A DNA stretch of 64,000 nucleotides from Planctomycetota bacterium (GTDB lineage: Bacteria; Planctomycetota; Phycisphaerae; Phycisphaerales; UBA1924), in contig JBCDJJ010000003.1 in assembly GCA_038747915.1 (NCBI GenBank), positions 19,740 through 83,739 on the forward strand, written 5' to 3'. Positions within the stretch are counted from its first letter, which is position 1; each line of letters opens with the position of its first letter. The position numbers and the translations under genes were made by a program. Positions 20,743 to 61,418 of this stretch are shown here, piece by piece. Below the pieces are notes generated by a model. The model ran no database searches. It was not told where the DNA came from and was given only the letters and a program-made list of their open reading frames with translations.

Positions 20743-20815
20743 TGGAGCGGAGGGGGCTCGAACCCCTAACCCCTGGCTTGCAAAGCCAGTGCTCTCCCAA
20801 TTGAGCTACCGCCCC
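20743..20815 (-). tRNA. tRNA-Ala (anticodon TGC)
   Basis: Reverse complement reads GGGGCGGTAGCTCAATTGGGAGAGCACTGGCTTTGCAAGCCAGGGGTTAGGGGTTCGAGCCCCCTCCGCTCCA. Cloverleaf with G3:U70, anticodon loop TT-TGC-AA, T-loop GGTTCGAGCCC. Confidence 0.8.
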
Positions 20816-23324: not shown

Positions 23325-23672
23325 GTGCGTGTTCCAGTGGACGCGTCGATCAACAGTTCGGACAGAGAGCAGCATCGGTCGGCGCCGGATCAACGAACCA
23401 GTGCGAATCCCATCGCGGCGCGCCTCAAGATTGATTGTGATGATCGCACACCGTTTCGAGTGCGCCCGTCCCTGCAACCGGTGGGCCGCGGGTTGGGTCG
23501 TAGCGAAATCTCGGTGCGGCCCTGGATCAAATCGAAATCAAGCGCGGGAAGTCAGTGAGAGAGGCGGTCGATATCGCTCGCGGCGTTGCCGGCGTGTTGC
23601 CGCGCGGCGCACTCCGCCGGCTCGCGTGAGTTGGGGAGCACAGCACTGGCAGCACTGCAAGGAGCCAGAACC
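23325..23672. promoter_or_regulatory. Divergent intergenic region between the cheA-like gene and gvpA (putative shared promoter/operator region)
   Basis: 348-nt non-coding gap between divergent starts. AGGAG SD sits 8 nt upstream of the gvpA ATG. Confidence 0.3.
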
Positions 23673-23888
23673 ATGGCCAAGGTTCAGAAGACGACGGACT
23701 CCTCGTCGCTGGCGGAAGTCGTGGATCGCATCCTCGACAAAGGCATCGTGATCGATGCCTTCGCCAAGGTTTCGCTGGTCGGCATCGAGCTCGTCTCGGT
23801 CGAGGCCCGCGTGGTGATCGCATCCGTCGAGACGTACCTCAAGTACGCCGAGGCGATCGGTCTGACCACATCGGCGACCGCTGTCTGA
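23673..23888 (+). CDS. gvpA: Gas vesicle structural protein GvpA
   Basis: 71 aa: [63 protein letters not shown]. This is a canonical GvpA sequence. Confidence 0.9.
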
Positions 23889-23944
23889 GGACGGCGACGA
23901 TCGCGCGCGGTTGTTCGGTTCTCCCCGCCGTGCCGCCGCGCTCC

Positions 23945-23977
23945 CCGACGGAGCCTGCGCTCCGCACACTCCGTCGG
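23945..23977 (+). terminator. Hairpin downstream of gvpA (candidate attenuator/partial terminator)
   Basis: 9-bp inverted repeat CCGACGGAG ... CTCCGTCGG with a 15-nt loop, followed by CGTTCGTCC. A gvpA-proximal attenuator would fit the usual excess of GvpA transcript (inference). Confidence 0.25.
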
Positions 23978-24009
23978 CGTTCGTCCCCGCACCCATCGGC
24001 GAGCCTCGC

Positions 24010-24786
24010 ATGAGCGAGTCATCACACCACACCGACTCGGTGGGCGATCTGCTCGCGCGGGTCCGCGCCGAGCGGCTCCGCGCCGCCCAGCAGGCTGCCG
24101 AGCAGCGGCGAGCCTTTCTTGCTGAGCTTCGCAGCAGCGTCGAATCGATCCGGCAGGATGTTCGCGCGGTGGTCGACCGAGCCGCCGAGGACCCGCCCGT
24201 CGTCGAGGAAGCAGCACCAGAGACGGCATCAATGGCATCCGACGCTCAGCCATCCGAGCCACCGATCCTGAACCAGCACATGACCCAGGAGGAGTACCCC
24301 ATGCCGAAGCACACGAAGTCGTCGGCCGCTGCTAAAGAGCAGTTCTTCTCATCCCCCGAGGTGTCCGACGCCTCGGGAGCCGCCGAGGCCCCGGTCGAGT
24401 CACCCAAGAAACGGTTCTACAGCTCTCCCGATGTCGCTGCGATTGATATCGAGGCGGCCGAGCCGATTGATGCTGCCAACTCGCCGAAGCAGCAGTTCTT
24501 CTCGGCCCCGGCGGTTGGTGGTGCCGGCACAGCGCCGACGGCCGCTCCGGACCCTGCGCCGAGCAGCCCGAAGTCGGCATTCTTCTCATCACCCCCGGTC
24601 GGTGGTCAGGCGACGAGCGGTGACGCGACAGCGAAGCAGCAGTTCTTTCGTTCGCCGAGCGTTGACGGTGGCTCGGCCCCATCGACCGACTCGCCGAAGT
24701 CATCGTTCTTCTCCTCTCCGCAGGTTGGTGACTCGGTCGAGCCACCCCGCGACGAGAAGGGACGATTCGTCTCCAAGGTGGCCTGA
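24010..24786 (+). CDS. Repeat protein with six copies of a K-x-x-F-F-S-S-P-x-V motif (GvpC-position protein, novel)
   Basis: N-terminal helical domain DLLARVRAERLRAAQQAAEQRRAFLAELRSSVESIRQD. Repeats KEQFFSSPEV, KKRFYSSPDV, KQQFFSAPAV, KSAFFSSPPV, KQQFFRSPSV and KSSFFSSPQV occur about every 25 aa. Confidence 0.6.
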   Translation: MSESSHHTDSVGDLLARVRAERLRAAQQAAEQRRAFLAELRSSVESIRQDVRAVVDRAAEDPPVVEEAAPETASMASDAQPSEPPILNQHMTQEEYPMPKHTKSSAAAKEQFFSSPEVSDASGAAEAPVESPKKRFYSSPDVAAIDIEAAEPIDAANSPKQQFFSAPAVGGAGTAPTAAPDPAPSSPKSAFFSSPPVGGQATSGDATAKQQFFRSPSVDGGSAPSTDSPKSSFFSSPQVGDSVEPPRDEKGRFVSKVA

Positions 24787-24810
24787 TCCTGTGGCAAAGG
24801 GACAGACACG

Positions 24811-25662
24811 ATGAGCACCGACACCGGATCATCGCGCAACCCGGACCTCTCACGCCGGGTTGCTGACCTGCTCGCCGAGGCACGCCAGGCCCGGCTGGCC
24901 GCGAGCCGTCTCGCCTCCAACGCGCGCCGCGAGGCGCTCGCTGCGATTCGCGAGGAGGTGAGCACAATCCGCTCAGCGAGCGCCGAGGCACTCGCTCGTC
25001 CGGCCACGGAGGCGGTGCCGACAACGGACACGATCGATGTGCCGGTTGACCAAGAGGCCCCGTCGTCTGCGTTGTCAGACGATGTGAGCTCGCCGATCGC
25101 TGGTGAGGATGCAGCCGTTGAGCACGAGGCATCGACGCCTGAAGCGCCCGCGATCCTCGACCCACCTGCGGCGATCGAGTCACCCGCGGTCCCCGAGACG
25201 CCCACTATCCCTGAGTCACCCGCGGTCTCCGAGGCGCCTGTGGTTGCCGAAGCGCCCGCGGCATCCGCGGTACCGACACCGGTCTCCGGGCCGGTTCCGC
25301 CGGCCGAGACACCCGTCGAGCGTGAGGTGTCATCGCCGGAGCCTCCCACACCGCCGGCGTTGCCGGCGCGTGCAGCGAGCGCGCCTTCCGGCGAATCACC
25401 GCCATCAGAAGATCTCAGGGATGAGACCATCTGGGCACTTCCCGAGGTCGCGCCTATCCCGATGAACGCGTCCGCACCATCGCGGCACGCGTCGCCACCT
25501 GTTGCCGCAAACGATTCCCCCGCGCCCAAGACGCCGGCCTCGTCCGAAGATGCGCCGACGGATCCGGGCGCGATCCCATCGCCGCAGACGCTGCCCCCGC
25601 CGTCGGGCCCGTCGGTAATGCCCGCCCCGCCGGCGACGCTTCCACCGATGAAGCGCGCATGA
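24811..25662 (+). CDS. Pro/Ala/Glu-rich low-complexity protein with an N-terminal helical domain paralogous to 24010..24786
   Basis: N-terminus VADLLAEARQARLAASRLASNARREALAAIREEVSTIRS is homologous to the neighbour. It is followed by PESPAVPETPTIPESPAVSEAPVVAEAPA-type repeats. Confidence 0.55.
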   Translation: MSTDTGSSRNPDLSRRVADLLAEARQARLAASRLASNARREALAAIREEVSTIRSASAEALARPATEAVPTTDTIDVPVDQEAPSSALSDDVSSPIAGEDAAVEHEASTPEAPAILDPPAAIESPAVPETPTIPESPAVSEAPVVAEAPAASAVPTPVSGPVPPAETPVEREVSSPEPPTPPALPARAASAPSGESPPSEDLRDETIWALPEVAPIPMNASAPSRHASPPVAANDSPAPKTPASSEDAPTDPGAIPSPQTLPPPSGPSVMPAPPATLPPMKRA

Positions 25663-25805
25663 TGCAGGCAGCGGAGCGCGGCGCCCCCCGCTTTGGGCGG
25701 GAGCCCCGCACAGCCGGATCATGATCGAGCCCGAAGTGAAGACGTTTGGATGAAGCGTCGCGGCGCCGCTCCACTTGTGCCGGTCCGCTGCCGATAACGG
25801 TCGCC

Positions 25806-26795
25806 ATGACCAACGTCGAATCCGAATCCGCGGTCCGGCGCACCCACGCCATCGAGTTCGAGGCCTCCGAGGACTTCGTGCTCACCGCCGAGGTGCAGGC
25901 GATCACCGAGCGAGCCCTGGCGTACCTTGCGGCGGGCTACGGCATTCATCTCGCGGGCCCGGCTGGAACGGGAAAGACAACGCTCGCGTTTCATATCGCG
26001 GCGCAGCTCGGCAACCCGATCACGCTCGTGCACGGCAATGATGAGTTCGGCAGCTCCGACCTCGTCGGCCGTGACACGGGCTACGCGCGCTCGAGCGTGG
26101 TCGACAACTTCATCCACTCGGTGCTCAAGACCGAGGAGCGGGTTGACATCGCCTGGTCGGACAATCGGCTGACCACCTGCTGCGAGCAGGGGCACACGCT
26201 GGTGTACGACGAGTTCAACCGGACGAGCCCCGAGGCCAACAACATCCTGCTGAGCGTGCTCGAGGAGGGCATTCTCGATCTCCCGCGGTCCGACGGCGGC
26301 GAGCAGTACCTCGAGGTGCACCCGAACTTTCGTTGCATCCTGACATCTAATCCTGAGGAGTACGCCGGTGTACATCGGACGCAGGATGCGCTGCTCGACC
26401 GTGTCGTGACGCTCGATGTCGGTCATTACGATGAGGAGACCGAGACGCGGATCACCGCGGCCAAATCAAATCTGGACCTTGTTGATGCGGCCACCATTGT
26501 GGAGTTGGTCCGCACCATGCGGCAGGTGGGCGAGAGCCCGACACGCCCGACGATCCGGGCCGCCATCGCGATCGCACGTGTGTGCGCTGCCAGGGGGGCC
26601 AGCATCGATGCACACGACCGGTTCTTCCGCGCGGTCTGTCATGATGTGCTGCTCGGCGCACTGCGCACGGGCGGGTCCGGCCGCGGGGTGACCGCGAAGA
26701 AACTCGATGAGCTGATCGATCTCGTGCGGCAGGCTCGGGCGGTGGCCCCGCCGAAGCGGCTCGAGCGCACGGAGGCACGCGATGCGGCGGCATGA
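25806..26795 (+). CDS. gvpN: Gas vesicle protein GvpN (AAA+ ATPase)
   Basis: Walker A GPAGTGKTTLAFHIAAQLGNPITLVHGNDEFGSSDLVGRDTGY. GvpN/CbbQ-type AAA. Confidence 0.85.
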   Translation: MTNVESESAVRRTHAIEFEASEDFVLTAEVQAITERALAYLAAGYGIHLAGPAGTGKTTLAFHIAAQLGNPITLVHGNDEFGSSDLVGRDTGYARSSVVDNFIHSVLKTEERVDIAWSDNRLTTCCEQGHTLVYDEFNRTSPEANNILLSVLEEGILDLPRSDGGEQYLEVHPNFRCILTSNPEEYAGVHRTQDALLDRVVTLDVGHYDEETETRITAAKSNLDLVDAATIVELVRTMRQVGESPTRPTIRAAIAIARVCAARGASIDAHDRFFRAVCHDVLLGALRTGGSGRGVTAKKLDELIDLVRQARAVAPPKRLERTEARDAAA

Positions 26796-26825
26796 GTCGA
26801 CGCGATCGCCCCAAGGACGCCTGGC

Positions 26826-27152
26826 ATGAGCGGACCACCACGCGGACTCAACTCGATCAAGACAGCGGCGGGCGCCCGCGGCCGCGGTGCGCGTCTCTCG
26901 TCGATCTACTCGCGCATCCTGACGCTCGAACTCGAGCACGAGCGGCGCGCCATGGAGCGAGAGAACGCCATGCGCCGCGTGAGTTCCGCGGAGATCCGTA
27001 TGAAGCGGATCGAGGCCGAACTCGCGGCCCTTCGCGACCTCGCCGACAGCGCGGCCCGTGACACGGACGCGGCAGACCTTCGTACAGCGGAGATCCGCGA
27101 TGTCAAGCCTGTTGTGATGACCAAGCCCGATCGCGTCCGCCACCGGTACTGA
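26826..27152 (+). CDS. Hypothetical coiled-coil protein (GvpO-position)
   Basis: 108 aa, charged and helical: ELEHERRAMERENAMRRVSSAEIRMKRIEAELAALRDLAD. AAGGA SD 7 nt upstream. Confidence 0.45.
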   Translation: MSGPPRGLNSIKTAAGARGRGARLSSIYSRILTLELEHERRAMERENAMRRVSSAEIRMKRIEAELAALRDLADSAARDTDAADLRTAEIRDVKPVVMTKPDRVRHRY

Positions 27153-27169
27153 ACACGAGAGCGAACCAC

Positions 27170-27487
27170 ATGAAGATCAACTGCATCCACTGCGGGCACA
27201 ACTTCTCGATCGATGCCGCGTACGACGACTACGAGGGTCTCGTCCGGTGTTCGACGTGTGGGGGCTTGCTCGAGATCAAGACATCCAGCGGTGCGTTGCG
27301 CGCCGTTCGCCCCGGCGCCATCCATGGCTCGGCACAACATGCGCCCGCCGAGACATCAACGACCGATCCCGAGGTTGAGCAGATGCGCCGTGAACTCGAG
27401 CGTCTGACGGCGGAGGTCCGCGAGGCGGCAGCGGAGGCGGTCCCGGCTCCCGAGTCGCCGTCGGGCCGTGCGGTCAAGCCGCTCTAA
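27170..27487 (+). CDS. Zinc-ribbon protein
   Basis: 105 aa, with CxxC...CxxC: MKINCIHCGHNF...VRCSTCGGLLEI. Confidence 0.5.
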   Translation: MKINCIHCGHNFSIDAAYDDYEGLVRCSTCGGLLEIKTSSGALRAVRPGAIHGSAQHAPAETSTTDPEVEQMRRELERLTAEVREAAAEAVPAPESPSGRAVKPL

Positions 27488-27536
27488 TGTGATTCATGAA
27501 CTGGCAGGTCACCCCAGCGAGTACGAGCGAGAACCG

Positions 27537-28364
27537 ATGAGCGACGAATTGCATGGCCTGTACTTCTACGGCATCGCACGCGGCGCCACCGTGGCTGAGC
27601 AACTCGCTGGGGCGCCGAGCGGCCTCGACGGGCGCCCGGTGTTCGCGGTTGTTGCGGGCGCACTCGCAGCGATCGTCAGCCTTGCGCCGGATGGCCGTCT
27701 CCGCCCGCAGCGTCGGGCGCTCGGCGCCCATCAGAGCGTGCTCAAGCACATCGGTGCACGCGGGCCAGCTCTGCCGGCATCGTTCGGCGTGATCGCGCCG
27801 AGCAGCGGGGGGCTCGCAGCGGTGCTGCGGGCCAATGCGGACACACTCGACGAGCAGCTCACAGAGACCGCGGGGTGTGTCGAGATGGGTGTGAAGCTCC
27901 GATGGGACGTCGACAACGTATTCGCCGACTTCGTCGATCGGTACGAGGTGCTCCGTGAGGCGCGCGTGGGTATCGCTGAGGGAGCGGCCAGCCGGGACGA
28001 ACTCATCGAGATCGGTCAGTTGTTCGAGCGGCTACAGGGCACCGAGCGCGACGAGGCACTCGCTGCGGTCCGTGGCACGATCGACACGGCCGCGCGCCGG
28101 GTCGTCGCCAACCCGCCGCGAAGCGAGAACGAGGTGCTGAACATCGCGTGCCTGGTTGAGCGCGACCGCGAAGACGGATTCGATGCAGCGGTGCAGCGGG
28201 CCGCGGAGTCGTTCGATGAACGGTTCGCCTTCGAGATTAGTGGGCCATGGCCGCCGTTCAACTTCGTCTCCCTCCGTCTCGAGTTCGATCACGATGCCTC
28301 GGGCGACGAGGCGGCGTTCGAGGTGATCGGTGAGCCGCACGTCGAAGTGAGCGAGGCCGCCTGA
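27537..28364 (+). CDS. gvpF: Gas vesicle protein GvpF/GvpL family
   Basis: LYFYGIARG...HQSVLKHI...PASFGVIAP, the GvpL_GvpF fold signature. Confidence 0.8.
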   Translation: MSDELHGLYFYGIARGATVAEQLAGAPSGLDGRPVFAVVAGALAAIVSLAPDGRLRPQRRALGAHQSVLKHIGARGPALPASFGVIAPSSGGLAAVLRANADTLDEQLTETAGCVEMGVKLRWDVDNVFADFVDRYEVLREARVGIAEGAASRDELIEIGQLFERLQGTERDEALAAVRGTIDTAARRVVANPPRSENEVLNIACLVERDREDGFDAAVQRAAESFDERFAFEISGPWPPFNFVSLRLEFDHDASGDEAAFEVIGEPHVEVSEAA

Positions 28365-28594
28365 TGTTCATCGTCGACGACATCCTGTTCTCTCCCGCGA
28401 AGGGCTTCATGTGGATCATGCGCGAGCTGCACAAGGCGGCGAGTCAGGAGCTCGAGTCCGAGGCGGACCGCATTACAGCGGAGCTCTCGAGTCTGTACAT
28501 GCGGCTCGAGACCGGTGAGATCACCGAGGACGAGTTCGACGAGCGCGAGACCGAGCTGCTCGACCGCCTAGACGAGCTGCAGGCAGAGGAGTAG
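28364..28594 (+). CDS. gvpG: Gas vesicle protein GvpG
   Basis: MFIVDDILFSPAKGFMWIMRELHKAA. Its start overlaps the stop of gvpF (TGATG). Confidence 0.75.
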   Translation: MFIVDDILFSPAKGFMWIMRELHKAASQELESEADRITAELSSLYMRLETGEITEDEFDERETELLDRLDELQAEE

Positions 28595-28599
28595 GCACG

Positions 28600-30582
28600 A
28601 TGTCGAGGGATGCCGGGCGACCCCCGCGATTCATCGAAGACGATCGGCTCGCGATGCTCCTGTTCGGTGGCAAGGGTGGTGTCGGCAAGACGACCTCCGC
28701 TTGCGCCGCAGCGGTGCGCCTCGCGATGGATCGTCCTCAGACGAGCGTCACGCTCATCTCCACCGATCCGGCGCACAGCACGAGCGATTGCCTCGGCGAT
28801 ACGGACGATCTTCCAGAGAACCTCGAGCTTGTCGAGCTTGATTCGGCTGCGGAGCAGGCTGCATTTATCTCCGAGCACGCGGATCAGCTGCGTGAGATCG
28901 CACTCCGCGGCACGTTCTTCGATGAGGAGGATGTCGACACATTCCTCGAACTCGCGGTGCCGGGTGCGGATGAGCTGATGGCGTTCCTGACACTGGCGCA
29001 CCACGCGGAGCGCATCGAGAACTCGCCGGGAGAGCCACGCGTGGTCGTGGTCGACACCGCCCCGACCGGCCACACGCTCCGGCTGCTCGCGATGCCCGAT
29101 CTGGTCGATCGATGGCTCGGCGCACTCGATGCCTTGCTCGCCAAGCACCGGTTCATGGCTTCGGCGTTCGGGTCAACGGGTGTGGATGAGGTCGAGCTGT
29201 TCCTTGCTCGGGTGACCGGGCAGGCCGAGTGCTTTGGCCGATTGTTGCGTGACGGTTCACGGTGTCAGTTCGTGCCGGTGTTCACACCCGAATCGCTCGC
29301 GGTGGCCGAGACGAATCGCTTAGTGACCGAACTCGAGCGGCTGGGCGTGGCATGCGACGAGGCGGTGCTGAACCGGCTTGTGCCGTCAGGTGAAGGCGAC
29401 CTTGGCGAAGCGATTCGCGCCGCGCAGCATCGCCAGCTCTCGGCGCTCGATGATTCGGTGCTCTGCCTCGACATCTGGGGACTGCCGGTGGCCCCGAGCG
29501 AGCCTGTGGGTCGGGCAGCACTTGCATCGTTGTGGGACCCGGGGCTTGCACCGGGCGGCATCACCGCGTGGCTTGCGAGCGATGTCGAACACGAGCCCGC
29601 GGAGGCACCGCGCGTCATGCAGGGCCGCGCATTGTCGCTTGATCCCAAGCGTCGGCTGCTGCTCGTGGCGGGTAAGGGCGGGGTGGGGAAGACGACGGTC
29701 GCATGCGCCGCGGCGATGGCCCTTGCTGCGGCGCGAAAGAAGGGCGATGTGCTCGTCGTCTCAACGGACCCTGCGCACTCGGTGGGTGATTGCTACGGCG
29801 TGTCGCTCACCGGGGAGCCGATCGAGATCGTGCCGCGCCTGCGAGCGATGGAGATCGACGCCGAGGCAGAGTTTGATCGGTTCCGTGAGCAGTACGAGCA
29901 GGAGATCGACGCGGCCCTCGGCTCCCTGATCGAGGGGGGCGACCTGACGTTCGATCGCGAGGCGATGTCTCGACTCGTGGATCTCGCGCCGCCGGGCATC
30001 GATGAGCTGATGGCCCTCGTACGCATCATCGACGAGCTCGACGGGGTCGTCGGCCGCACCATCGTGTTCGATACCGCGCCGACCGGGCACCTGCTCCGCC
30101 TGCTCGAGACGCCGGAGCTGGTCGAGTCGTGGCTAGCCGGCGTCTTCAAGCTCATGCTGAAGTACGAGTCGGTCGTTCGGGTCCCCCGGTTGCGTGATCG
30201 GTTGATCGAGCTGAGCAAGGGGATCAAGTCCGTGCGCACGATGCTGGGCACCGCAAAGTCGTCGTCACTCGTCGCGGTTTCCATCCCCACAAGACTGGCG
30301 GTCGAGGAGCTGAGCGATCTCGCACTCGCGATCCGTTCCATGGGTGTGGCCTTGGCGGGGGTGGTGATCAACCGGTGTACACCGGATGGTGGGGGTGTCA
30401 TCCTGAGCGGACAGGCCGAGGCGGAGCGCCACTGGATCGAGGTGGCCCGACGTGCGGTGCCGGATGCTGCACCGATATGCCTTACATGGGGGGGTGAGCC
30501 GGTGGGGATCGAGCGCCTTGGTGCGCTCGGGCGCGAACTCTTTGCTGTGCACCGTGGTGGTCTGCTTTCCTCAGCCGCATGA
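28600..30582 (+). CDS. Tandem two-domain ArsA/Get3-like P-loop ATPase embedded in the gvp cluster
   Basis: Two halves, each with a deviant Walker A GKGGVGKTT (LLFGGKGGVGKTTSACAAAV and LLVAGKGGVGKTTVACAAAM) and the ArsA/Get3 switch motif DTAPTGHT (twice). Confidence 0.85.
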   Translation: MSRDAGRPPRFIEDDRLAMLLFGGKGGVGKTTSACAAAVRLAMDRPQTSVTLISTDPAHSTSDCLGDTDDLPENLELVELDSAAEQAAFISEHADQLREIALRGTFFDEEDVDTFLELAVPGADELMAFLTLAHHAERIENSPGEPRVVVVDTAPTGHTLRLLAMPDLVDRWLGALDALLAKHRFMASAFGSTGVDEVELFLARVTGQAECFGRLLRDGSRCQFVPVFTPESLAVAETNRLVTELERLGVACDEAVLNRLVPSGEGDLGEAIRAAQHRQLSALDDSVLCLDIWGLPVAPSEPVGRAALASLWDPGLAPGGITAWLASDVEHEPAEAPRVMQGRALSLDPKRRLLLVAGKGGVGKTTVACAAAMALAAARKKGDVLVVSTDPAHSVGDCYGVSLTGEPIEIVPRLRAMEIDAEAEFDRFREQYEQEIDAALGSLIEGGDLTFDREAMSRLVDLAPPGIDELMALVRIIDELDGVVGRTIVFDTAPTGHLLRLLETPELVESWLAGVFKLMLKYESVVRVPRLRDRLIELSKGIKSVRTMLGTAKSSSLVAVSIPTRLAVEELSDLALAIRSMGVALAGVVINRCTPDGGGVILSGQAEAERHWIEVARRAVPDAAPICLTWGGEPVGIERLGALGRELFAVHRGGLLSSAA

Positions 30583-30640
30583 CGAGCCGATAACCGCTAT
30601 CGATCGGTCCCGTGTTGTCGTCCTTTGGGAGTTCGTCTCG

Positions 30641-30874
30641 ATGCCGCGCACGCGTCTTCACCAAGTAGCTCGTTCGTCCGGGAGGGCGCGGTGTATCGAG
30701 CCGCAGGAGACGATCCTGTGCGACGCGCTTGACCGTGTGCTCAGTGTCGGTGTGGCGGCGCGTGGCGACCTCGTGATCGCTGTGGCGGATGTGCCGCTGA
30801 TCAAGCTGAGCCTGGGTGTGTTGCTGGCCTCGGTCGAGACCGCCGAGGGCCGGATCGAGAGGGGGACACGATGA
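30641..30874 (+). CDS. Small GvpA-family protein (GvpS/GvpM-like), not called in the ORF track as a separate gene
   Basis: 77 aa: ILCDALDRVLSVGVAARGDLVIAVADVPLIKLSLGVLLASVETAEG matches the GvpA/J/M/S core (LxxxLDRxLxxGVxxxGDxxIxxxxVxLxxLxLxxxxASVE). ATGA overlap with the gvpK start. Confidence 0.6.
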   Translation: MPRTRLHQVARSSGRARCIEPQETILCDALDRVLSVGVAARGDLVIAVADVPLIKLSLGVLLASVETAEGRIERGTR

Positions 30875-31218
30875 CCCGATGCCCGACCGAACTCGAACCG
30901 CTGCTCTCGGCGCTGGAAGACGTGACCGCGGTGGACGACTCCGAGGCGGATGCCTCGCCGCGGCTCAACGTCGACCCCGCGGATGTGAAAAAGGGGCTCG
31001 GTCAGCTCGTGCTGACCGTGGTCCGGCTGCTGCACGAGCTGCTCGAGCGTCAGGCGATCCGTCGGATCGAGTCGGGCTCGCTGACCGATGACGAGGCCGA
31101 CCGACTCGGCACGACGATGAAGCTCCAAGCCGAGGAGATCGAGAAGCTCGCCGGCTACTTCGGGCTGCGCACCGAAGATCTGAACATGGACCTCGGCCCC
31201 CTCGGCAAGTTGATGTAA
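30871..31218 (+). CDS. gvpK: Gas vesicle protein GvpK
   Basis: GLGQLVLTVVRLLHELLERQAIRRIESGSLTDDEADRLG. Confidence 0.85.
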   Translation: MTRCPTELEPLLSALEDVTAVDDSEADASPRLNVDPADVKKGLGQLVLTVVRLLHELLERQAIRRIESGSLTDDEADRLGTTMKLQAEEIEKLAGYFGLRTEDLNMDLGPLGKLM

Positions 31219-31228
31219 GGCGCGTGCG

Positions 31229-31621
31229 ATGGCGATTCAGCAGGGTGGCCCGACCCACCTGAGCACAACCAACATCGCGGACCTACTCGAGCGTGTGCTC
31301 GACAAGGGTGTGGTCATCGCGGGTGATGTCAAGCTCAAGCTGCTCGACATTGAACTTCTCACGATTCAGCTCCGTTTGGTGGTGTGCTCGGTCGACAAGG
31401 CGCAGCAGATGGGCATCGACTGGTGGTCGCAGACCAAATCGCTGTGCGCACCGGAGGAGACACCACCGATCGAGGCGGGTACAGAGGCCGAGACCAAGCC
31501 CGCGCTGCCGTCGCCCGAAGAGCACGAGGCGCTGCAGCAACGAGTGGAGGAGCTTCAACAGCAACTCGAGCAGATCCAAACCGAGCAGCAGACCCCCTGG
31601 CGGAGACCCAAGACCCCATGA
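31229..31621 (+). CDS. gvpJ: Gas vesicle protein GvpJ (GvpA family)
   Basis: LADLLERVLDKGVVIAGDVKLKLLDIELLTIQLRLVVCSVDKAQQMGIDWW. Confidence 0.85.
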   Translation: MAIQQGGPTHLSTTNIADLLERVLDKGVVIAGDVKLKLLDIELLTIQLRLVVCSVDKAQQMGIDWWSQTKSLCAPEETPPIEAGTEAETKPALPSPEEHEALQQRVEELQQQLEQIQTEQQTPWRRPKTP

Positions 31622-32247
31622 TCGCCCGTGAGGCGCCCGGAGAGCGCCGACTCGTTGTCATCCCGATGCTGCACACCGAGACGGACCTCGGCGAGCTATC
31701 AGACCGTGTTCGGCGTGAGACCGTCGCCCATGCCGGTCGACGAGCGTGGGAGCGCAAGCAGCGTGCGATCGAGCGGCTATGGAGCGAGATCACCGAATGG
31801 TCGGAGCGTGTTGCGATCCCTGAGGCCGGCATGCGGCTCTACCAGGATGGTCTGCCGGTCTGCGGACCGGGCGAGCGCGATGTCACGCGCACCATCGTGG
31901 AGGATCTCGGTACACGCGGGAGCCTGAACCATCGCATCCTGCTGAGTCTCATCGAGCGCGGGGCGACGCTCGAGGGCACCGAGTCGCCAGAGTTGCTGCT
32001 CGCCGAGTATCGCTTGGCCCGGGGCGAGGCGGAGCAGGATGGTGATGGCACCCCCGCTGCGCACGATCTGCTCGAGCAACGTGACCGGTTCATCGCGCAG
32101 CGCATCGATGCCACGCTCGAGCCTCACCAGGTCGGCGTGCTGTTCATCGGGTATTTGCACAACATCCCGCCGCACCTGCCCGCAGGCATCACGGTCGAGC
32201 ACCCCTTCGACGTTGCCGAGGCCCTCAGCCAAGGAGCACACGCATGA
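31618..32247 (+). CDS. Hypothetical gvp-cluster protein
   Basis: 209 aa, coupled by ATGA overlaps to gvpJ upstream and hsp20 downstream. No recognised motif. Confidence 0.5.
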   Translation: MIAREAPGERRLVVIPMLHTETDLGELSDRVRRETVAHAGRRAWERKQRAIERLWSEITEWSERVAIPEAGMRLYQDGLPVCGPGERDVTRTIVEDLGTRGSLNHRILLSLIERGATLEGTESPELLLAEYRLARGEAEQDGDGTPAAHDLLEQRDRFIAQRIDATLEPHQVGVLFIGYLHNIPPHLPAGITVEHPFDVAEALSQGAHA

Positions 32248-32780
32248 GCACCGCCAACACCCCACCCGGATCGTCCGGCCACCCGTCGGGCGGCCAGCCC
32301 GCAGGGTTCCTTGATGGTCTAACTCGGCTGCTTCACACGATCGGCGAGCTCGCGGACAAGGGTGCCGAGCTGAAAGAGTCCGGACTGTTCGAGACAGAGT
32401 CGGGCAAGCAGGGCCGCGTGAACGTCGGCTTCTCGATCCGCACCGCGGGGACCGGTCAACCGGGCGAGGGCGGGCTCAAGGTCGAGCCGTTTGGCAACGT
32501 GCGGCGCAACCGCGAGACGGGCGAGGCGGAACTCGCTGCGGTGCGCGAACCGATCGTCGATGTGTTCGACGAGGAGGGCGAAGCGCTGCGTGTGGTGGCC
32601 GAACTGCCCGGTATCGATGAGAGCCAGGTGACTCTCCGCGCCGATGGGCGCACGCTCGTGCTCGAGGCCGAGGATGGCTCGAAGCGCTACCACGCCGAGG
32701 TCGAGCTCCCCCGCGAGGTGCGCGTGGAGGAGGCATCGATCTCGTGCAATAACGGGATCGCGGAGATCACCTTTTCTTGA
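32244..32780 (+). CDS. Hsp20/alpha-crystallin family protein (GvpH-like position)
   Basis: ACD: ALRVVAELPGIDESQVTLRADGRTLVLEAE...YHAEVELPREV...GIAEITF. AAGGAG SD. Confidence 0.85.
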   Translation: MSTANTPPGSSGHPSGGQPAGFLDGLTRLLHTIGELADKGAELKESGLFETESGKQGRVNVGFSIRTAGTGQPGEGGLKVEPFGNVRRNRETGEAELAAVREPIVDVFDEEGEALRVVAELPGIDESQVTLRADGRTLVLEAEDGSKRYHAEVELPREVRVEEASISCNNGIAEITFS

Positions 32781-32816
32781 GCGTGTGGACCACGCCTGTA
32801 TCACGATGAGTCGGAG

Positions 32817-34979
32817 ATGCGCCGGATGATCCGCAAGAGCCCTCCCGCAGCCGAGCTGACCCGCCGGGTCGCCGAGGCCCAGCCGAAGGATGTTGGCCGC
32901 GCCATCGCGCGCCTCGATCCCTCGGATCTGCGTGAGCTCGGTCTCGCGACGGGCGACACCGTCGAGGTGGTCGGTGCGCGGACGACCGTGTGCCGAGCGC
33001 TGCCGACACGGAAGTCCGACCGGTCCGCCGGCTCGGTTCACATCGATGGGATGACGCGCGAGAACGCGCGCGTCGGTGTCGATGCGGAGGTGGCGATTCG
33101 GCCGGTGCCGTGCCCACGGGCCGAGCGTGTGGTTCTTGAGCCAGAGGCCCGCCGCCCCGATGGGAAGGAGCTGGCGTACATCGCATCGCTGCTCGATGGG
33201 CTGCCGGTTTCGTCTGGTGACCGCGTGCGGGTGAACACCTTCGGTAATCGCCCGATGCACTTCCGTGTGAAGCGCACGATGCCGGATACGGCGTGCGTCG
33301 TCGCCTCGAGCACCGCGCTGGAACTCGTGGGCGGGTCATCGAGTAGCAGCCGAGCGAAGCGGGACGCACCCGCTGCAACGCCGGCGAGCGTCTCGTACGA
33401 GGATGTCGGTGGTCTGGGCAAGCAGGTGCATCGCATCCGGGAGACGATCGAGCTCCCGCTGCGCTTCCCCGAGGTGTTCGATCGCTTGGGGATCGATCCG
33501 CCTAAGGGCGTGCTGCTGCACGGCCCGCCCGGGTGCGGCAAGACACTCATCGCCCGCGCGATCGCGCACGAGACCAATGCCAACTTCTTCGTGATCTCCG
33601 GGCCCGAGATCGTACACAAGCACTACGGCGAGTCGGAGGCCAATCTCCGCAAGGTGTGGGCCGAGGCGACGCGTCAGGGTCCATCGATCGTGTTCATCGA
33701 CGAGATCGACTCGATCGCGCCCAAGCGGGAGCAGACACAGGGCGAGGTGGAGAAGCGGATCGTCGCGACGCTTCTTACCTTGATGGACGGGCTCGAAGCC
33801 CGGCGGGGTGTTGTCGTGCTCGCTGCGACTAACCTGCCGAACAACCTCGACCCCGCCCTGCGGCGACCCGGGCGATTTGACCGGGAGATCGAGATCCCGG
33901 TGCCCGACGCGATCGGTCGTGGTGAGATCCTCGATGTGCATACGCGCGGCATGCCGCTCGCGGCCGATGTTGATCTGGATCGAGTCGCCCAGATTACACA
34001 CGGGTGCGTCGGGGCCGATCTCGAGTCACTGTGCCGTGAGGCAGCGATGCACTGTCTCCGCCAGATCATGGGGGAGATCGACTTCGTCACCGGTGATGTG
34101 CCCTACGAGAAGCTCGCCTCGCTCACGGTCTCGATGAACGATTTCGTGGCCGCGTTCGCCGAGGTCACGCCGAGCGCTCTGCGTGAGGTATTCGTCGAGA
34201 CACCGCGTGTGTCGTGGGACGATGTCGGCGGTCTCGAGGATGTAAAAGCCAAACTGGTTGAATCGGTCGACTGGCCCGTGCGGCACGCAGCACTCTTTGA
34301 AGAGGCGAAGCTCCGTCCACCCCGCGGTGTGATGCTCGCCGGCCCTCCGGGTGTGGGGAAGACGCTGATCGCCAAGGCCACCGCGAGCCAGCTCGGCGCC
34401 AACTTCATCTCGGTGAAAGGCCCGGAGCTGCTGTCGCAGTTTGTGGGCGAGTCGGAGCGAGCGATGCGCGAGGTGTTCCGAAAGGCGCGGCTGGCCTCGC
34501 CATGTGTGATTTTCCTTGACGAGGCGGATGCGCTGCTGCCTAAACGCTCCGGTTCAGCGACCGATGGCGGCGTGCGCGAGCGTGTGGCGGCTCAATTCCT
34601 CACGGAGATGGACGGCATCGAGGAGCTGCGCGGCGTGCTTGTGCTCGCGGCGACGAATCGGCTGGACATCATCGATCCTGCGGCGCTCCGGCCGGGACGG
34701 TTCGATCACGTGATCGAGCTCGGCCTGCCGACACCGGTCGATCGCGAACGCATCTTCGCGGTCCATCTGCGCGATCGCCCGACGGGCACGGCAGTCACAG
34801 CTGAAGTGCTGGCGGAGCTCGCCGGCGATGTGAGCGGAGCAGAGATCGCGGGTGTGTGCGACCGGGCCGCGATGCTCGCGGTGCGAGACAGCGTGTCGGG
34901 CGGTGCCCCGATCCGAATGACGCTCGAACACTTCCGGGGCGCAATGCGCGACATCCTCGGCGTGGAGATCGAATCATGA
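32817..34979 (+). CDS. CDC48/VAT-type AAA+ ATPase (N-domain plus D1 and D2)
   Basis: CDC48 N-domain TRRVAEAQPKDVGRAIARLDPSDLRELGLATGDTVEVVG. Two Walker A motifs, GPPGCGKTLIARAIAHE and GPPGVGKTLIAKATAS, plus two second-region-of-homology segments. Confidence 0.85.
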   Translation: MRRMIRKSPPAAELTRRVAEAQPKDVGRAIARLDPSDLRELGLATGDTVEVVGARTTVCRALPTRKSDRSAGSVHIDGMTRENARVGVDAEVAIRPVPCPRAERVVLEPEARRPDGKELAYIASLLDGLPVSSGDRVRVNTFGNRPMHFRVKRTMPDTACVVASSTALELVGGSSSSSRAKRDAPAATPASVSYEDVGGLGKQVHRIRETIELPLRFPEVFDRLGIDPPKGVLLHGPPGCGKTLIARAIAHETNANFFVISGPEIVHKHYGESEANLRKVWAEATRQGPSIVFIDEIDSIAPKREQTQGEVEKRIVATLLTLMDGLEARRGVVVLAATNLPNNLDPALRRPGRFDREIEIPVPDAIGRGEILDVHTRGMPLAADVDLDRVAQITHGCVGADLESLCREAAMHCLRQIMGEIDFVTGDVPYEKLASLTVSMNDFVAAFAEVTPSALREVFVETPRVSWDDVGGLEDVKAKLVESVDWPVRHAALFEEAKLRPPRGVMLAGPPGVGKTLIAKATASQLGANFISVKGPELLSQFVGESERAMREVFRKARLASPCVIFLDEADALLPKRSGSATDGGVRERVAAQFLTEMDGIEELRGVLVLAATNRLDIIDPAALRPGRFDHVIELGLPTPVDRERIFAVHLRDRPTGTAVTAEVLAELAGDVSGAEIAGVCDRAAMLAVRDSVSGGAPIRMTLEHFRGAMRDILGVEIES

Positions 34980-35806
34980 ACCAATCTGGTGGTCCTGCCG
35001 TCAAGTCGCGGTTTGCGGTCGAGCCCAAGCCGGAGTCGTCGCCGTCGCCTATCTACGCAGCGGCGCTGCTACCGCCGGATGCGCCCGCGATCGAGGCACC
35101 GGGGATCGAGCAAGGCCTGACGCTCCGCACGGTGGAGATCGGCGGGTGGTGTGCGTTTGCAGGTGTGGTTGGCCTCTCGATGTTCATGGGCGACGACGCC
35201 GAGCAACGGCTCCAAGACCCTGCGTGGCTCACCCCGCGTGCGATCGCGCACGAGCGGGCACTGCTCGAGGCCCGGACACACGTCGACCTGCTCCCGCTCC
35301 CATTCGGCACGGTGTTCCACTCGCTCGACTCGCTCGCAGACCGGTGCGATCGTCACGCCGAGGTACTCGCCGACTTCTTCGCCAGAACCTGCGGCGCCTC
35401 CGAATGGTGCATCAAGGTGACAGCGAGCCGGCGTGACGCGATCGAGCACGAGGTCGAGTCGCGTTTAAACCTCGAAGTCGGGGCCGAGGCGAGCGGCGCC
35501 GCGTACCTCCGCGCTCAGGCACGTCGCCGCGCGATCGAGACCGAGGTGCTCCACGATCTCTCGGCCTTCGCCGATGAACAGGCCGACCGGCTCGATGCGA
35601 TCGCTCGCGATAGCTCGGATCGGCGTCAGACATCGGGAGAGCCCGACATCGAGACACTCGCGCACTGGGCATTCCTTGTCGATCGCCGCGAGAGCGAGCG
35701 GGTGTCCGAGCTCACGCGAGAGATCAACCACGGTGCGCCCTCCGGCGTGCGTTTCGATCTCGCGGGCCCGTTCCCGCCGTACAGCTTCACCCCACGGTTG
35801 AGCTGA
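34976..35806 (+). CDS. Gas vesicle protein GvpF/GvpL family (second copy)
   Basis: WLTPRAIAHERALLEARTHVDLLPLPFGTVFHSL. ATGA overlap with the cdc48-like stop. Confidence 0.75.
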   Translation: MNQSGGPAVKSRFAVEPKPESSPSPIYAAALLPPDAPAIEAPGIEQGLTLRTVEIGGWCAFAGVVGLSMFMGDDAEQRLQDPAWLTPRAIAHERALLEARTHVDLLPLPFGTVFHSLDSLADRCDRHAEVLADFFARTCGASEWCIKVTASRRDAIEHEVESRLNLEVGAEASGAAYLRAQARRRAIETEVLHDLSAFADEQADRLDAIARDSSDRRQTSGEPDIETLAHWAFLVDRRESERVSELTREINHGAPSGVRFDLAGPFPPYSFTPRLS

Positions 35807-35841
35807 GCGCCAGACCCGCCACATCAAGGTATCTGTTCGAT

Positions 35842-35904
35842 GTTGTGTATCGCACAACGTTCGGCGCATGAAAACACTGCACTCCCTTGTGCGGGCGTGC
35901 AGTG
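35842..35904. terminator. Two hairpins in the convergent gap between gvpF2 and pyp (candidate bidirectional terminators)
   Basis: GTTGTG-TATCG-CACAAC at 35842-35858, and CACTGCAC...GTGCAGTG (8-bp arms) at 35875-35904. No clear U-tract. Confidence 0.25.
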
Positions 35905-35944
35905 TGCGGGTGTGTGTCGGGGAGTCGTGGCCGAGGTTCCGGGC

Positions 35945-36349
35945 TCAGCCGGCGACTTTGACGAAGATCCAGTTCGTCTTACTGGCCGGATCGCGGTAGA
36001 GGTGGATGTTGACCGCGGTGGGCTTCATCTTGAAGGTGAAGGTGTAGGGGAAGGCGAGGTTGAGCTGATCGGCGGCGACGCCCTTCTTGAACGAGCCGAA
36101 GAAGAGGCCGTTGTTCGAGCAGGGGGCGACCTGGGTGAAGAAGTTGCGGCCCTCGGCCTGGCTGGCGGGGATGCCAGCGAGGTTCTGCTCGTACTGGTTG
36201 TAAAGCAGGATCTTGCCGGCTTCGTCGGTCTTGATGATCCCGAAGTCGTAGCCGTCCGCGTCGCCGCGGGAGAGGTTTCCGAGTCGAGAGAACAGTTCGT
36301 CGGGGACAAAGGTGCCGTTCTGGCTGGCGGTGTTCATCATGACGCTCAT
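35945..36349 (-). CDS. pyp: Photoactive yellow protein (PAS-domain blue-light photoreceptor)
   Basis: FGIIKTDEAGKILLYNQYEQNLAGIPASQAEGRNFFTQVAPCSNNGLFFGSFKKGVAADQLNLAFPYTFTFKMKPTAVNIHLYRDPASKTNWIFVKV. It has the NFF..VAPC chromophore-Cys motif and close colinearity with Halorhodospira PYP. Confidence 0.85.
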   Translation of the reverse strand: MSVMMNTASQNGTFVPDELFSRLGNLSRGDADGYDFGIIKTDEAGKILLYNQYEQNLAGIPASQAEGRNFFTQVAPCSNNGLFFGSFKKGVAADQLNLAFPYTFTFKMKPTAVNIHLYRDPASKTNWIFVKVAG

Positions 36350-36690
36350 TCGTGTGCTCCTTGATTCAGATGCTCTTTCCATTCGGCCCGCATGACGGGC
36401 TTGTCGTCCACGATCTCGAGCGAGATCGACTTCTCGGAGAACTGCGCATCCAGGTGCTCAGCGAGCTGATTCACCTGCACGAGCAGGGCGGCGGCGGTCG
36501 ATCCGTCGGCATCGGCGATGCCTCCGAATCGCTGGTAGAGGTCGCAGAGCTGCGCCTCCAGACTACGGACCATGTTGAGAATCCCGTCGGCATCGCACAC
36601 ACCGATCTGGCTCGCGAGCTGCTCACGCTCGGCGTAGATCGATTCGAGCTGGTGCAGCGTGCCGCCGGTCTCGTTGCTGATGTTCTGCAT
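36346..36690 (-). CDS. Hypothetical protein co-operonic with pyp
   Basis: 114 aa. Its stop overlaps the pyp start by 4 nt. No recognisable domain. Confidence 0.5.
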   Translation of the reverse strand: MQNISNETGGTLHQLESIYAEREQLASQIGVCDADGILNMVRSLEAQLCDLYQRFGGIADADGSTAAALLVQVNQLAEHLDAQFSEKSISLEIVDDKPVMRAEWKEHLNQGAHE

Positions 36691-37134: not shown

Positions 37135-37405
37135 GGGGCTTCTCCGATGGGTTGGCTCACCACAGGACTGAGGAGTTGGTCGGTCGAGGCGCCTCGCTCG
37201 TTCATCTCAACGACAACCCTTCATGCAAATCGATGTAAATCCCCAAGGACCGGGGAGCACCCGTATGCCGTCGCGCACCGATCGACCGGCAATCGAACCA
37301 CGGAGCACGAAGCACACCGTGAAGGGTCGCTTCCTCTCATCGAGCGCACCCGAGAGGCCGATAGCACAGACGCGCACGCCGGGCGACGAGACGCGAGTGA
37401 CCGAG

Positions 37406-38848
37406 ATGCCACCCAAAGCTATCTGCACCCACGAGGTCATCCGTGAGCGGCTCTACAACTCGCTTACGTCGAGCCCGGCGCCGGTCTTCTTCTTCGGTGA
37501 GAGCGCCATCCCCGGGCCGTCGATCTGGACCGCAGCGCGGAAGTGGGTGTCGATGTTCCGGCACCTCGGCGTGGCGCCGGGCGAGCGCGTCGTGCTCTCC
37601 CTTGATCCGGGGCCAGGGTTTCTCGCAGCACTCGTCGCTGGAATCTGGGAGGAGTTCACGCTCGTGCTCCCGGGCTTCGGTGATCGGCCGGAAGAAGTCG
37701 CCGACGAGACCAAGGCCCGCCTGATCCTCGACGAGGAGACCACCGCCGGGCGTCCGGGCACCGTCACGCAGATGCCCTTGTTCGTGACCGAACCCACTCC
37801 CGCTGCACGGTTTCTACTCCGATCGAGCGGCACGAGCGGTCGCTCGGACCGCTTCGTCGCGCTCTCGAACGAGAACATCCTGGCGGTGGCTGAGAGCCAC
37901 CAGTACGCCGTCCCGCCCGAGGGTAGCGTGGCGCTCTCGCTCCTCCCCTGGAACCACGCCTTCGGGCTGGTGCTCGAGCTGCTCCCGGCGCTCTGGTCGA
38001 CCACCATGTTCGTGCGCACACAGGATGCCGCGCGTGACCCAGCCATCGCGCTCGAATGGTCGAACAGGTTTGATGTCCGGTGGGCAAACATGGTGCCGCT
38101 GCAGGCGGCGCGGCTCGCCGCGTCATCGGGCGGGCTCGCATGGCTGCGTGGGCTCGACGGCGGCATCGTTGGTGGAGCGCCCGTCGATGGTGCGCTCGCC
38201 GATGTGCTCGCGACCACCAAGCTCCGTCCCGGGTACGGTCAGACCGAGGCATCACCGGGCATCACGCTCGGCGAGCCCGGCGAGTGGGGGGACCGGTGCA
38301 TCGGTCAGCCGGTCGGGTGCGAGACAGAGATCACACCAGATGGTGAACTCGTCGTGACGGGACCGAACGTCTGCCTTGGTGTGTGGGAACACGGGGCCCT
38401 GACCGAGTTCGATCCCAATCGCGCACTGCACACAGGCGATCTCGTCGAGCGTCTGCCCTCGGGCTCACTCGCCTTCGTGGGTCGGACCGATCATCGCTTC
38501 AAGCTGTCCAACGGCCGGTTGGTGGACGCACCGGCGCTCGAGCGCGACCTCGACGGCGTGGTGCTGCTGCCGGATGAGGGCGGCGCCGGCGTTGTCCTGG
38601 CCCTCGAGCCCGGGGCCGACGCCGGGCCCGATGTGCTGGAGTATCTCGGACGCATCCCAGCACGCACGATTCGGCTTGCCGAGGCGGCGCCCAGAACACG
38701 AAAGGGTGAGATCGATCGCCGAGCGCTCCAAGAGCGCATCCGATCCAACGACACACCACGGAGCACGCATGATCCCAGCGAGCACGCGTCCAACGACACG
38801 CCGGCCGATCTCGGTGACGCCACCATCGACTCACGCCGAGCCGCCTGA
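37406..38848 (+). CDS. pcl: AMP-dependent synthetase/ligase; candidate 4-coumarate-CoA ligase for PYP chromophore activation
   Basis: AMP-binding motif LLRSSGTSGRSDRFVALS. Position beside pyp and the ammonia-lyase mirrors pyp-pcl-tal clusters. Confidence 0.7.
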   Translation: MPPKAICTHEVIRERLYNSLTSSPAPVFFFGESAIPGPSIWTAARKWVSMFRHLGVAPGERVVLSLDPGPGFLAALVAGIWEEFTLVLPGFGDRPEEVADETKARLILDEETTAGRPGTVTQMPLFVTEPTPAARFLLRSSGTSGRSDRFVALSNENILAVAESHQYAVPPEGSVALSLLPWNHAFGLVLELLPALWSTTMFVRTQDAARDPAIALEWSNRFDVRWANMVPLQAARLAASSGGLAWLRGLDGGIVGGAPVDGALADVLATTKLRPGYGQTEASPGITLGEPGEWGDRCIGQPVGCETEITPDGELVVTGPNVCLGVWEHGALTEFDPNRALHTGDLVERLPSGSLAFVGRTDHRFKLSNGRLVDAPALERDLDGVVLLPDEGGAGVVLALEPGADAGPDVLEYLGRIPARTIRLAEAAPRTRKGEIDRRALQERIRSNDTPRSTHDPSEHASNDTPADLGDATIDSRRAA

Positions 38849-61346: not shown

Positions 61347-61418
61347 AGCCATCGATGGGACTTGAACCCATGACCTCACCCTTACCAAGGGTGTGCTCTA
61401 CCACTGAGCTACGATGGC
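61347..61418 (-). tRNA. tRNA-Thr (anticodon GGT)
   Basis: Reverse complement GCCATCGTAGCTCAGTGGTAGAGCACACCCTTGGTAAGGGTGAGGTCATGGGTTCAAGTCCCATCGATGGCT. Anticodon loop TT-GGT-AA. Upstream of tuf, as in thrT-tufB arrangements. Confidence 0.8.

Follow-up and report, generated by a model that had tools for sequence, protein, structure and literature searches.

The gas-vesicle (gvp) locus described here raises the question of whether the short open reading frame (ORF) that ends at the start of gvpK is a real gene and, if so, to which branch of the GvpA family its product belongs and where its translation begins. The locus lies within a 64-kb stretch of DNA of ~65% GC, hereafter the window, to which all coordinates refer, and the source is a metagenome-assembled genome (MAG) of the Planctomycetota. 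A preliminary description of this DNA had proposed an unannotated small gene of GvpS/GvpM type, hidden in the 3′ overlap of an ArsA-like ORF. The gene is called gvpS throughout, in keeping with the outcome of our analysis.

Methods

The labelled reference proteins were GvpA2, GvpS, GvpJ and GvpK of B. megaterium (Dataset EV2 of PMC11445434), GvpA, GvpJ, GvpM and GvpK of Halobacterium pNRC100, and the products of a Streptomyces fungicidicus cluster arranged in the classical order O-A-F-G-J-L-S-K. The Streptomyces and Halobacterium clusters were obtained via plasmid tblastn, which returned weak matches only. The references used with phmmer for gvpA were Anabaena, Halobacterium and Bacillus megaterium GvpA.

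A total of 80 gvp loci were retrieved from GTDB species genomes using a GvpK alignment without the archaeal (Halobacterium) sequence as the seed, a five-sequence alignment that included Halobacterium being too divergent for a genome scan. GvpA-family genes in these loci were labelled by position only, as lying just upstream of gvpK (S), just downstream of it (J) or more than 2 kb upstream (A), and one profile was built per position class with the window excluded. The far-upstream (A) class is mostly GvpA, with slight contamination, since gvpJ too lies upstream of gvpK in actinomycete clusters.

Table 1. Features of the gvp locus and its surroundings, in window coordinates
Feature	Coordinates	Strand	Evidence or annotation
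tRNA gene	20743-20815	-	Rfam, gathering threshold
gvpA, major shell protein, 71 aa	23673-23885	+	phmmer 73-99 bits; MEM1164812.1 'GvpA'
First ORF between gvpA and gvpN	24010-24786	+	
Second ORF between gvpA and gvpN	24811-25662	+	
gvpN (mechanical ORF; likely start ATG 25806)	25746-26795	+	TIGR02640 gas_vesic_GvpN 339.7 bits, cut-off 266.8
First small ORF between gvpN and gvpF	26826-27152	+	
Second small ORF between gvpN and gvpF	27170-27487	+	N-terminal zinc-ribbon
gvpF (mechanical ORF; Pfam domain from residue 30)	27468-28364	+	PF06386 195 bits
gvpG	28364-28594	+	PF05120 67.8 bits
Two-domain ArsA/Get3-family ATPase, upstream neighbour of gvpS	28600-30582	+	PF02374 318 bits, TIGR00345 315 bits
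Shine-Dalgarno-like GGGAG of gvpS	30627-30631	+	9-nt spacer to ATG, sequence inspection
gvpS, GvpS/GvpM-type GvpA-family gene, 77 aa	30641-30874	+	PF00741; S-position profile; identical MEM1164821.1
gvpK	30871-31218	+	PF05121 GvpK 108.9 bits; MEM1164822.1
gvpJ, true GvpJ orthologue, G(I/M)DWW after core	31229-31621	+	PF00741 59.4 bits; J profile 131 bits
209-aa protein	31618-32247	+	
GvpH/Hsp20-like gene	32244-32780	+	
CDC48-type double-AAA ATPase	32817-34979	+	
gvpL/F-family gene (expected GvpL partner)	34976-35806	+	PF06386 114.9 bits; conserved CDC48-L module
Photoactive-yellow-protein-like ORF	35945-36382	-	By eye; weak Pfam PAS match
Possible coumarate-CoA-ligase-like gene	37223-38848	+	By eye
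tRNA gene	61347-61418	-	Rfam, gathering threshold

Results

The 77-aa product of gvpS (MPRTRLHQVARSSGRARCIEPQETILCDALDRVLSVGVAARGDLVIAVADVPLIKLSLGVLLASVETAEGRIERGTR) matched the Pfam family Gas_vesicle (PF00741) at 36.9 bits (gathering score 25; E 4e-9), residues 26-63 aligning with profile positions 2-39 of 39 (38 of the 39 positions); the profile search by which the preliminary description had proposed to check the gene was thus significant. A six-frame scan of the window with GvpA-family queries found exactly three segments of the family, at gvpA (approximately the coordinates in Table 1), gvpJ and gvpS, the same count as had been given for the locus before. When 1.84 billion cluster representatives were searched exhaustively with HMMER, the gvpS protein matched 1100 of them at E<=1e-3, nearly all 60-130 aa long. 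The protein is nevertheless divergent, with one relative above 50 bits besides itself and two proteins at E<=1e-10, and a word-indexed homologue search with the 77-aa sequence recovered a single relative besides the protein itself. The genes gvpA, N, F, G, K and J, the H-like gene and gvpL are all carried on one strand, within 12 kb of DNA. Judged from its sequence, gvpS is a real small gene of the GvpA family.

Pairwise comparison with the labelled references gave the best matches to Streptomyces (S. fungicidicus) GvpS (53 bits, 65% identity) and B. megaterium GvpS (48 bits, 49% identity), followed by GvpJ proteins (33-41 bits), Halobacterium GvpM (33 bits, 33% identity) and GvpA proteins (22-29 bits). 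These margins are modest, as the core comprises only ~40 residues, and the position-based test was made because they were small. Against the S, J and A position profiles the window gvpS protein scored 67.2, 29.0 and 23.3 bits, which is the pattern of the three reference GvpS/GvpM proteins, namely B. megaterium GvpS (85, 35 and 55 bits), Streptomyces GvpS (66, 33 and 23 bits) and Halobacterium GvpM (47, 22 and 26 bits); the first and last of these have been studied experimentally. The corresponding scores were 62, 131 and 86 bits for the window GvpJ and 50, 53 and 128 bits for the window GvpA, which is 77% identical to the published B. megaterium GvpA2.

Among the NCBIfam models, which for GvpM and GvpJ are narrow and haloarchaeal, the best match was to GvpM (NF046091, halo_gas_GvpM) at 32.3 bits, far below its cut-off of 109, and the GvpJ model (NF046090, cut-off 125) gave 18.7 bits; the NCBIfam GvpA model did not match. 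The protein is not a member of the haloarchaeal GvpM model NF046091. Alignment with the references revealed neither the G(I/M)DWW motif and long C-terminal extension of GvpJ, nor the alpha2 'YLKYAE' region and the Glu of the '(G/D)IELL' turn of GvpA, and the alignment ends at SVETAEG plus seven residues. The gene at 30641-30874 is very probably gvpS, the bacterial counterpart of haloarchaeal GvpM and Serratia GvpA2, and the type proposed in the preliminary description agrees with the Pfam match, the position profiles and the best labelled matches alike. As a separate candidate, a second major shell protein was rejected since the product lacks alpha2 and its A-profile score is low (23 bits, compared with 128 for the window GvpA).

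The GenBank record points to another reading, namely that the gene is a second gvpJ that duplicates the function of the gene at 31229-31621. MEM1164821.1 is identical over all 77 aa, start included, and has the product name 'MAG: gas vesicle protein GvpJ [Planctomycetota bacterium]'; GvpJ, GvpS and GvpM have one common Pfam domain, and the pairwise scores to GvpJ are not far under those to GvpS. However, the J-position profile gave only 29 bits, where the true window GvpJ reaches 131, and the S-position profile gave 67; the G(I/M)DWW motif and long C-terminal extension that are common to the window, Streptomyces and Bacillus GvpJ are missing. The gene also lies directly upstream of gvpK, in the gvpS position, with the bona fide gvpJ after gvpK, and the NCBIfam GvpM model outscores the GvpJ model. 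We therefore consider a second GvpJ very unlikely.

In GenBank the neighbours of MEM1164821.1 are an ArsA family ATPase (MEM1164820.1), gas vesicle protein K (MEM1164822.1) and a 'gas vesicle protein' (MEM1164823.1), all four on a contig of 83.7 kb. The names do not follow orthology, as the GvpS/M-type protein is called 'GvpJ' and the GvpJ orthologue, MEM1164823.1, only 'gas vesicle protein'; 'GvpJ' is arguably a loose label and the two names are arguably swapped in spirit. The gene is in any case not unannotated, as had been stated, given that the exact protein was already in the database.

The profile of the gvpS protein and 77 relatives matched only GvpA structures in the PDB, 8GBS (E 2e-12) and 7R1C (E 3e-11), and to our knowledge no structure of GvpS, GvpM or GvpJ has been solved. 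An AlphaFold2 model based on the same alignment (mean pLDDT 71, ~90 in the hairpin) comprised alpha1 (residues 26-36), beta1 (38-48), beta2 (51-62) and a short helix (65-76), preceded by an arginine-rich, basic N-terminal tail (residues 1-25) that is predicted to be disordered. The best two PDB matches of this model by Foldseek were again 8GBS and 7R1C, with probabilities of 1.00 and 0.99 but weak E values (0.03-0.06) and a TM score of ~0.4.

All positions that are at least 89% conserved among 212 S-type relatives are kept in the protein (L26, L30, D31, R32, L34, G37, G42, A49, L53, L58 and S64). Four other residues are rare in that set, S35 (1%), V36 (2%), P52 (7%) and K55 (2%), the usual residues being N-K in place of S35-V36, D (83%) at P52 and Y (78%) at K55. 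Such changes at conserved positions (K36V, D52P, Y55K and S35), together with the very small number of close relatives (two proteins at E<=1e-10), could indicate a decaying, non-functional relic in a lineage that no longer needs the protein. This is highly improbable, as the ORF is intact with its Shine-Dalgarno site and ATGA junction, all nearly invariant positions are retained and the rest of the gvp operon is complete. Pro52 is also found in Streptomyces GvpS and in the experimentally characterized Halobacterium GvpM. Furthermore, the closest homologue, with 55% identity and from a different sequencing run (P0002, in locus L002, with gvpK after it), keeps the unusual features xVG and ADVPLIK. 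As the same oddities persist in a homologue this distant and from a different sample, purifying selection on the variant is suggested, and the substitutions in gvpS look like a maintained variant rather than decay.

The start (ATG, 30641-30643) and stop (TGA, 30872-30874) codons of gvpS were read from the sequence, and both the internal ATG and the 77-aa translation given in the preliminary description agree with it. The TGA overlaps the ATG of gvpK (30871-30873) as ATGA, at 30871-30874 as had been reported, and on account of this stop-start overlap the two genes are probably translationally coupled. Upstream, the ArsA-like ORF ends with a TGA at 30580-30582, from which a 58-nt spacer leads to the gvpS ATG; the 77-aa gene is therefore free of overlap with ArsA. 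The mechanical 140-aa ORF (30452-30874) does begin inside the ArsA-like gene, as had been noted, since it extends the gvpS frame back to a GTG at 30452, before the ArsA stop. However, only this spurious extension overlaps ArsA, and the description of gvpS as hidden in the 3′ overlap does not hold.

The homologue P0002 has (M/V)PRTR at its N-terminus and a GTG start with AGGAG 10 nt before it, and its similarity to the window gene starts exactly at MPRTR, with none upstream of that codon. The gene was called independently in GenBank and on a Logan contig, both times as a 77-aa gvpS. The C-terminus of ArsA could be aligned with ~25 homologues up to ~residue 650 of 660, and the stretch under the N-terminal extension of the 140-aa ORF for this reason codes for ArsA and is non-coding in the gvpS frame. 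That translation instead starts at GTG 30452 (140 aa), or at some other upstream codon, so that the gene truly overlaps the 3′ end of ArsA, is the least credible of the alternatives: the frame is indeed open as far back as 30407 and contains several GTG, ATG and TTG codons there, and its third-position GC is already high from ~30460, but the latter is common for a second frame in 65% GC DNA, conservation across 30452-30550 lies in the ArsA frame (including a G.P.G...L..LG..L motif), the upstream start candidates have no Shine-Dalgarno site while one precedes the MPRTR codon in both gvpS and P0002, the extension lowers the Pfam score from 36.9 to 35.4 bits, and both gene calls settled on 77 aa. 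In DNA of 65% GC, mechanical ORF tracks carry small genes too far upstream, into the preceding gene, which leads to false 'hidden' overlapping genes.

The other ORFs that overlap gvpS, three antisense (30658-31128, 30482-30664 and 30801-30968, all on the minus strand) and one on the plus strand (30816-31091), had no Pfam match even at E<=1, and an Rfam search of the gvpS region found no family. A promoter and terminator scan of 23000-36500 produced sites not above those of shuffled sequence, with none near gvpS, which fits a gene in the interior of an operon. At the gathering threshold, Rfam matched nothing in the window except the two tRNA genes in Table 1.

Discussion

Our survey of 80 loci found an S-type gene directly upstream of gvpK in 62, with a further two borderline cases, and the remaining loci were mostly truncated contigs or had other gene orders. 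The order A-N-(two small ORFs)-F-G-[ArsA]-S-K-J was seen repeatedly, in members of Acidobacteriota, Desulfobacterota, Planctomycetota, Methylococcaceae, Chromatiaceae and further groups, whereas actinomycetes and bacilli have the order ...L-S-K instead. Overlaps of 1-4 nt occur in the window operon between F and G, S and K, J and the next ORF, that ORF and the Hsp20-like gene, and the CDC48-like gene and L. The S/K overlap has parallels, as gvpS and gvpK of S. fungicidicus share the same 4-nt overlap and the two ORFs overlap in B. megaterium too (PMC11445434). Gvp clusters normally hold two extra gvpA-related genes, which for haloarchaea are J and M, for Bacillus J and S and for Serratia A3 and A2 (PMC9501494), so that three family members are the expected complement. 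Being already in GenBank and the normal gene before gvpK, gvpS is an ordinary, expected part of the cluster, already annotated and already known. The trio of A, J and S/M is the standard set thought to be needed for gas-vesicle formation, and its presence supports a Planctomycetota MAG that would encode a complete, probably functional gas-vesicle system.

The function of gvpS can be approached through its homologues. In B. megaterium, GvpS is essential and homologous to the gas-facing alpha1-beta1-beta2 segment of GvpA2; GvpS, GvpK and GvpJ are each required for the interaction of GvpA2 with GvpL, and it has been proposed that the three seed new vesicles and sit at their tips (PMC11445434). 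Purified bicones washed with 6 M urea retain GvpJ and GvpS (PMC10327013), and GvpM and GvpJ of Halobacterium are low-abundance, essential, early-acting proteins that bind GvpL (PMC9501494). The partners of GvpS are all encoded in the window (K, J, F, G, the L/F-family gene and N). On the basis of these homologue data and the complete set of partners, the gvpS product is likely to be a minor, shell-integrated nucleation component that acts with GvpJ, GvpK and GvpL, although a seeding or cone-tip role for GvpS/M is itself a hypothesis in the literature.

From the sequence, translation of gvpS begins at ATG 30641, which has a Shine-Dalgarno site of its own, and the gene lies within a tightly packed F-G-ArsA-S-K-J operon. 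By analogy with the homologues, the protein would be made in small amounts and would be essential for vesicle formation; essentiality and physical incorporation into vesicles or bicones are known only for B. megaterium GvpS and Halobacterium GvpM. It may be built into the shell via the same gas-facing hairpin as GvpA and act, alongside GvpJ and GvpK and on a scaffold of GvpL/GvpF, in the earliest ('seeding' or cone-tip) phase, a step that would precede the polymerization of GvpA into ribs.

Among the named systems, GvpS of B. megaterium and Streptomyces resembles the window protein in being small and limited to the alpha1-beta1-beta2 core, in a gene that overlaps gvpK downstream and in a cluster that contains gvpJ; Streptomyces GvpS also has the 'GDLVIA(V/I)ADVPL' stretch in common with it. 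Unlike these proteins, the window GvpS has an arginine-rich 25-aa N-terminal tail and SVG in place of the usual (N/D)KG turn, and the gene before gvpS, which is gvpL in Bacillus and actinomycetes, is the ArsA/Get3-like ATPase in the window, with gvpL 4 kb downstream. GvpM of Halobacterium salinarum is regarded as a GvpS homologue (PMC11445434, PMC9501494) and shares the short architecture, a 'VADIPL'/'VADVPL' beta-turn with Pro and the excess of the S over the J and A profile scores. However, it differs in sequence (33% identity) and in position, gvpM being the last gene of gvpFGHIJKLM, after gvpL, and not the one before gvpK. GvpA2 of Serratia sp. ATCC 39006 has been equated with M/S (PMC9501494) and belongs to the same Gram-negative gene class as the window gvpS, an equivalence based on the statement in that review and on gene order. 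GvpA itself (8GBS, 7R1C), the only relative in the PDB, has the same Pfam domain and the same helix-hairpin core as predicted for the window GvpS, but the long amphipathic alpha2 is missing in the latter. Clusters of gvpNLFGJKM and hsp20 that contain two-domain ArsA homologues were reported by Castillo and Saier (2010; PMC2963123); their content agrees with that of the window, and the gvpM annotated in them falls in the same gene class as the window gvpS.

ArsA-like matches were present in 32 of the 80 gvpK loci, ~28 of which, from several phyla, had the order G-ArsA-S-K-J (ArsA-linked loci: L005, L006, L008, L012-L016, L018-L022, L026, L027, L030-L032, L038, L040, L047, L072, L076 and L081). 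Most gvp-linked homologues retain a C-terminal Cys pair (C.LC), which is missing from the window copy. Get3 handles tail-anchored proteins, and this provides a model for a hand-over between ArsA and GvpS, in which the ArsA/Get3-type ATPase would be a dedicated ATP-driven chaperone that captures the GvpS hairpin, and perhaps GvpJ and GvpA, and delivers it to the nascent vesicle. The basis for this proposal is the adjacency of the genes in the ~28 loci, and we regard it as unlikely, though less so than the alternatives considered for gvpS above. If it were true, the arginine-rich tail and the turn substitutions of GvpS would be adaptations to the hand-over.

Several other genes of the cluster were noted. 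The two ORFs between gvpA and gvpN occupy the usual position of gvpC. A regular expression applied to the product of the first found six copies of K..F(F/Y).(S/A)P.V, spaced 21-28 residues apart, which Tandem Repeats Finder did not pick up as repeats; the product of the second is rich in Pro, Ala and Ser, and the N-terminal segments of the two (DLLARVRAERLRAA... and DLLAEARQARLAAS...) are alike by eye. Neither ORF matched a Pfam family or had a homologue in the 80 related loci, and they may encode lineage-specific, GvpC-like outer-surface proteins. Both of the small ORFs between gvpN and gvpF (x268, x271) are conserved in many related Gram-negative gvp loci.

Downstream of gvpJ, the 209-aa protein, for which Pfam gave no match, the GvpH/Hsp20-like protein, the CDC48-type ATPase and GvpL form, in this order, a four-gene module that is also present in L005, L021, L031, L029 and L034. 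The CDC48-like protein is the third ATPase of the cluster, besides GvpN and ArsA. The gvp cluster is directly followed on the opposite strand by the ORF that resembles photoactive yellow protein (PYP), and further downstream there may be a coumarate-CoA-ligase-like gene (Table 1). Linkage of PYP and gvp genes in Rhodobacter capsulatus and Loktanella is cited in PMC3646047, and such linkage suggests blue-light control of buoyancy.
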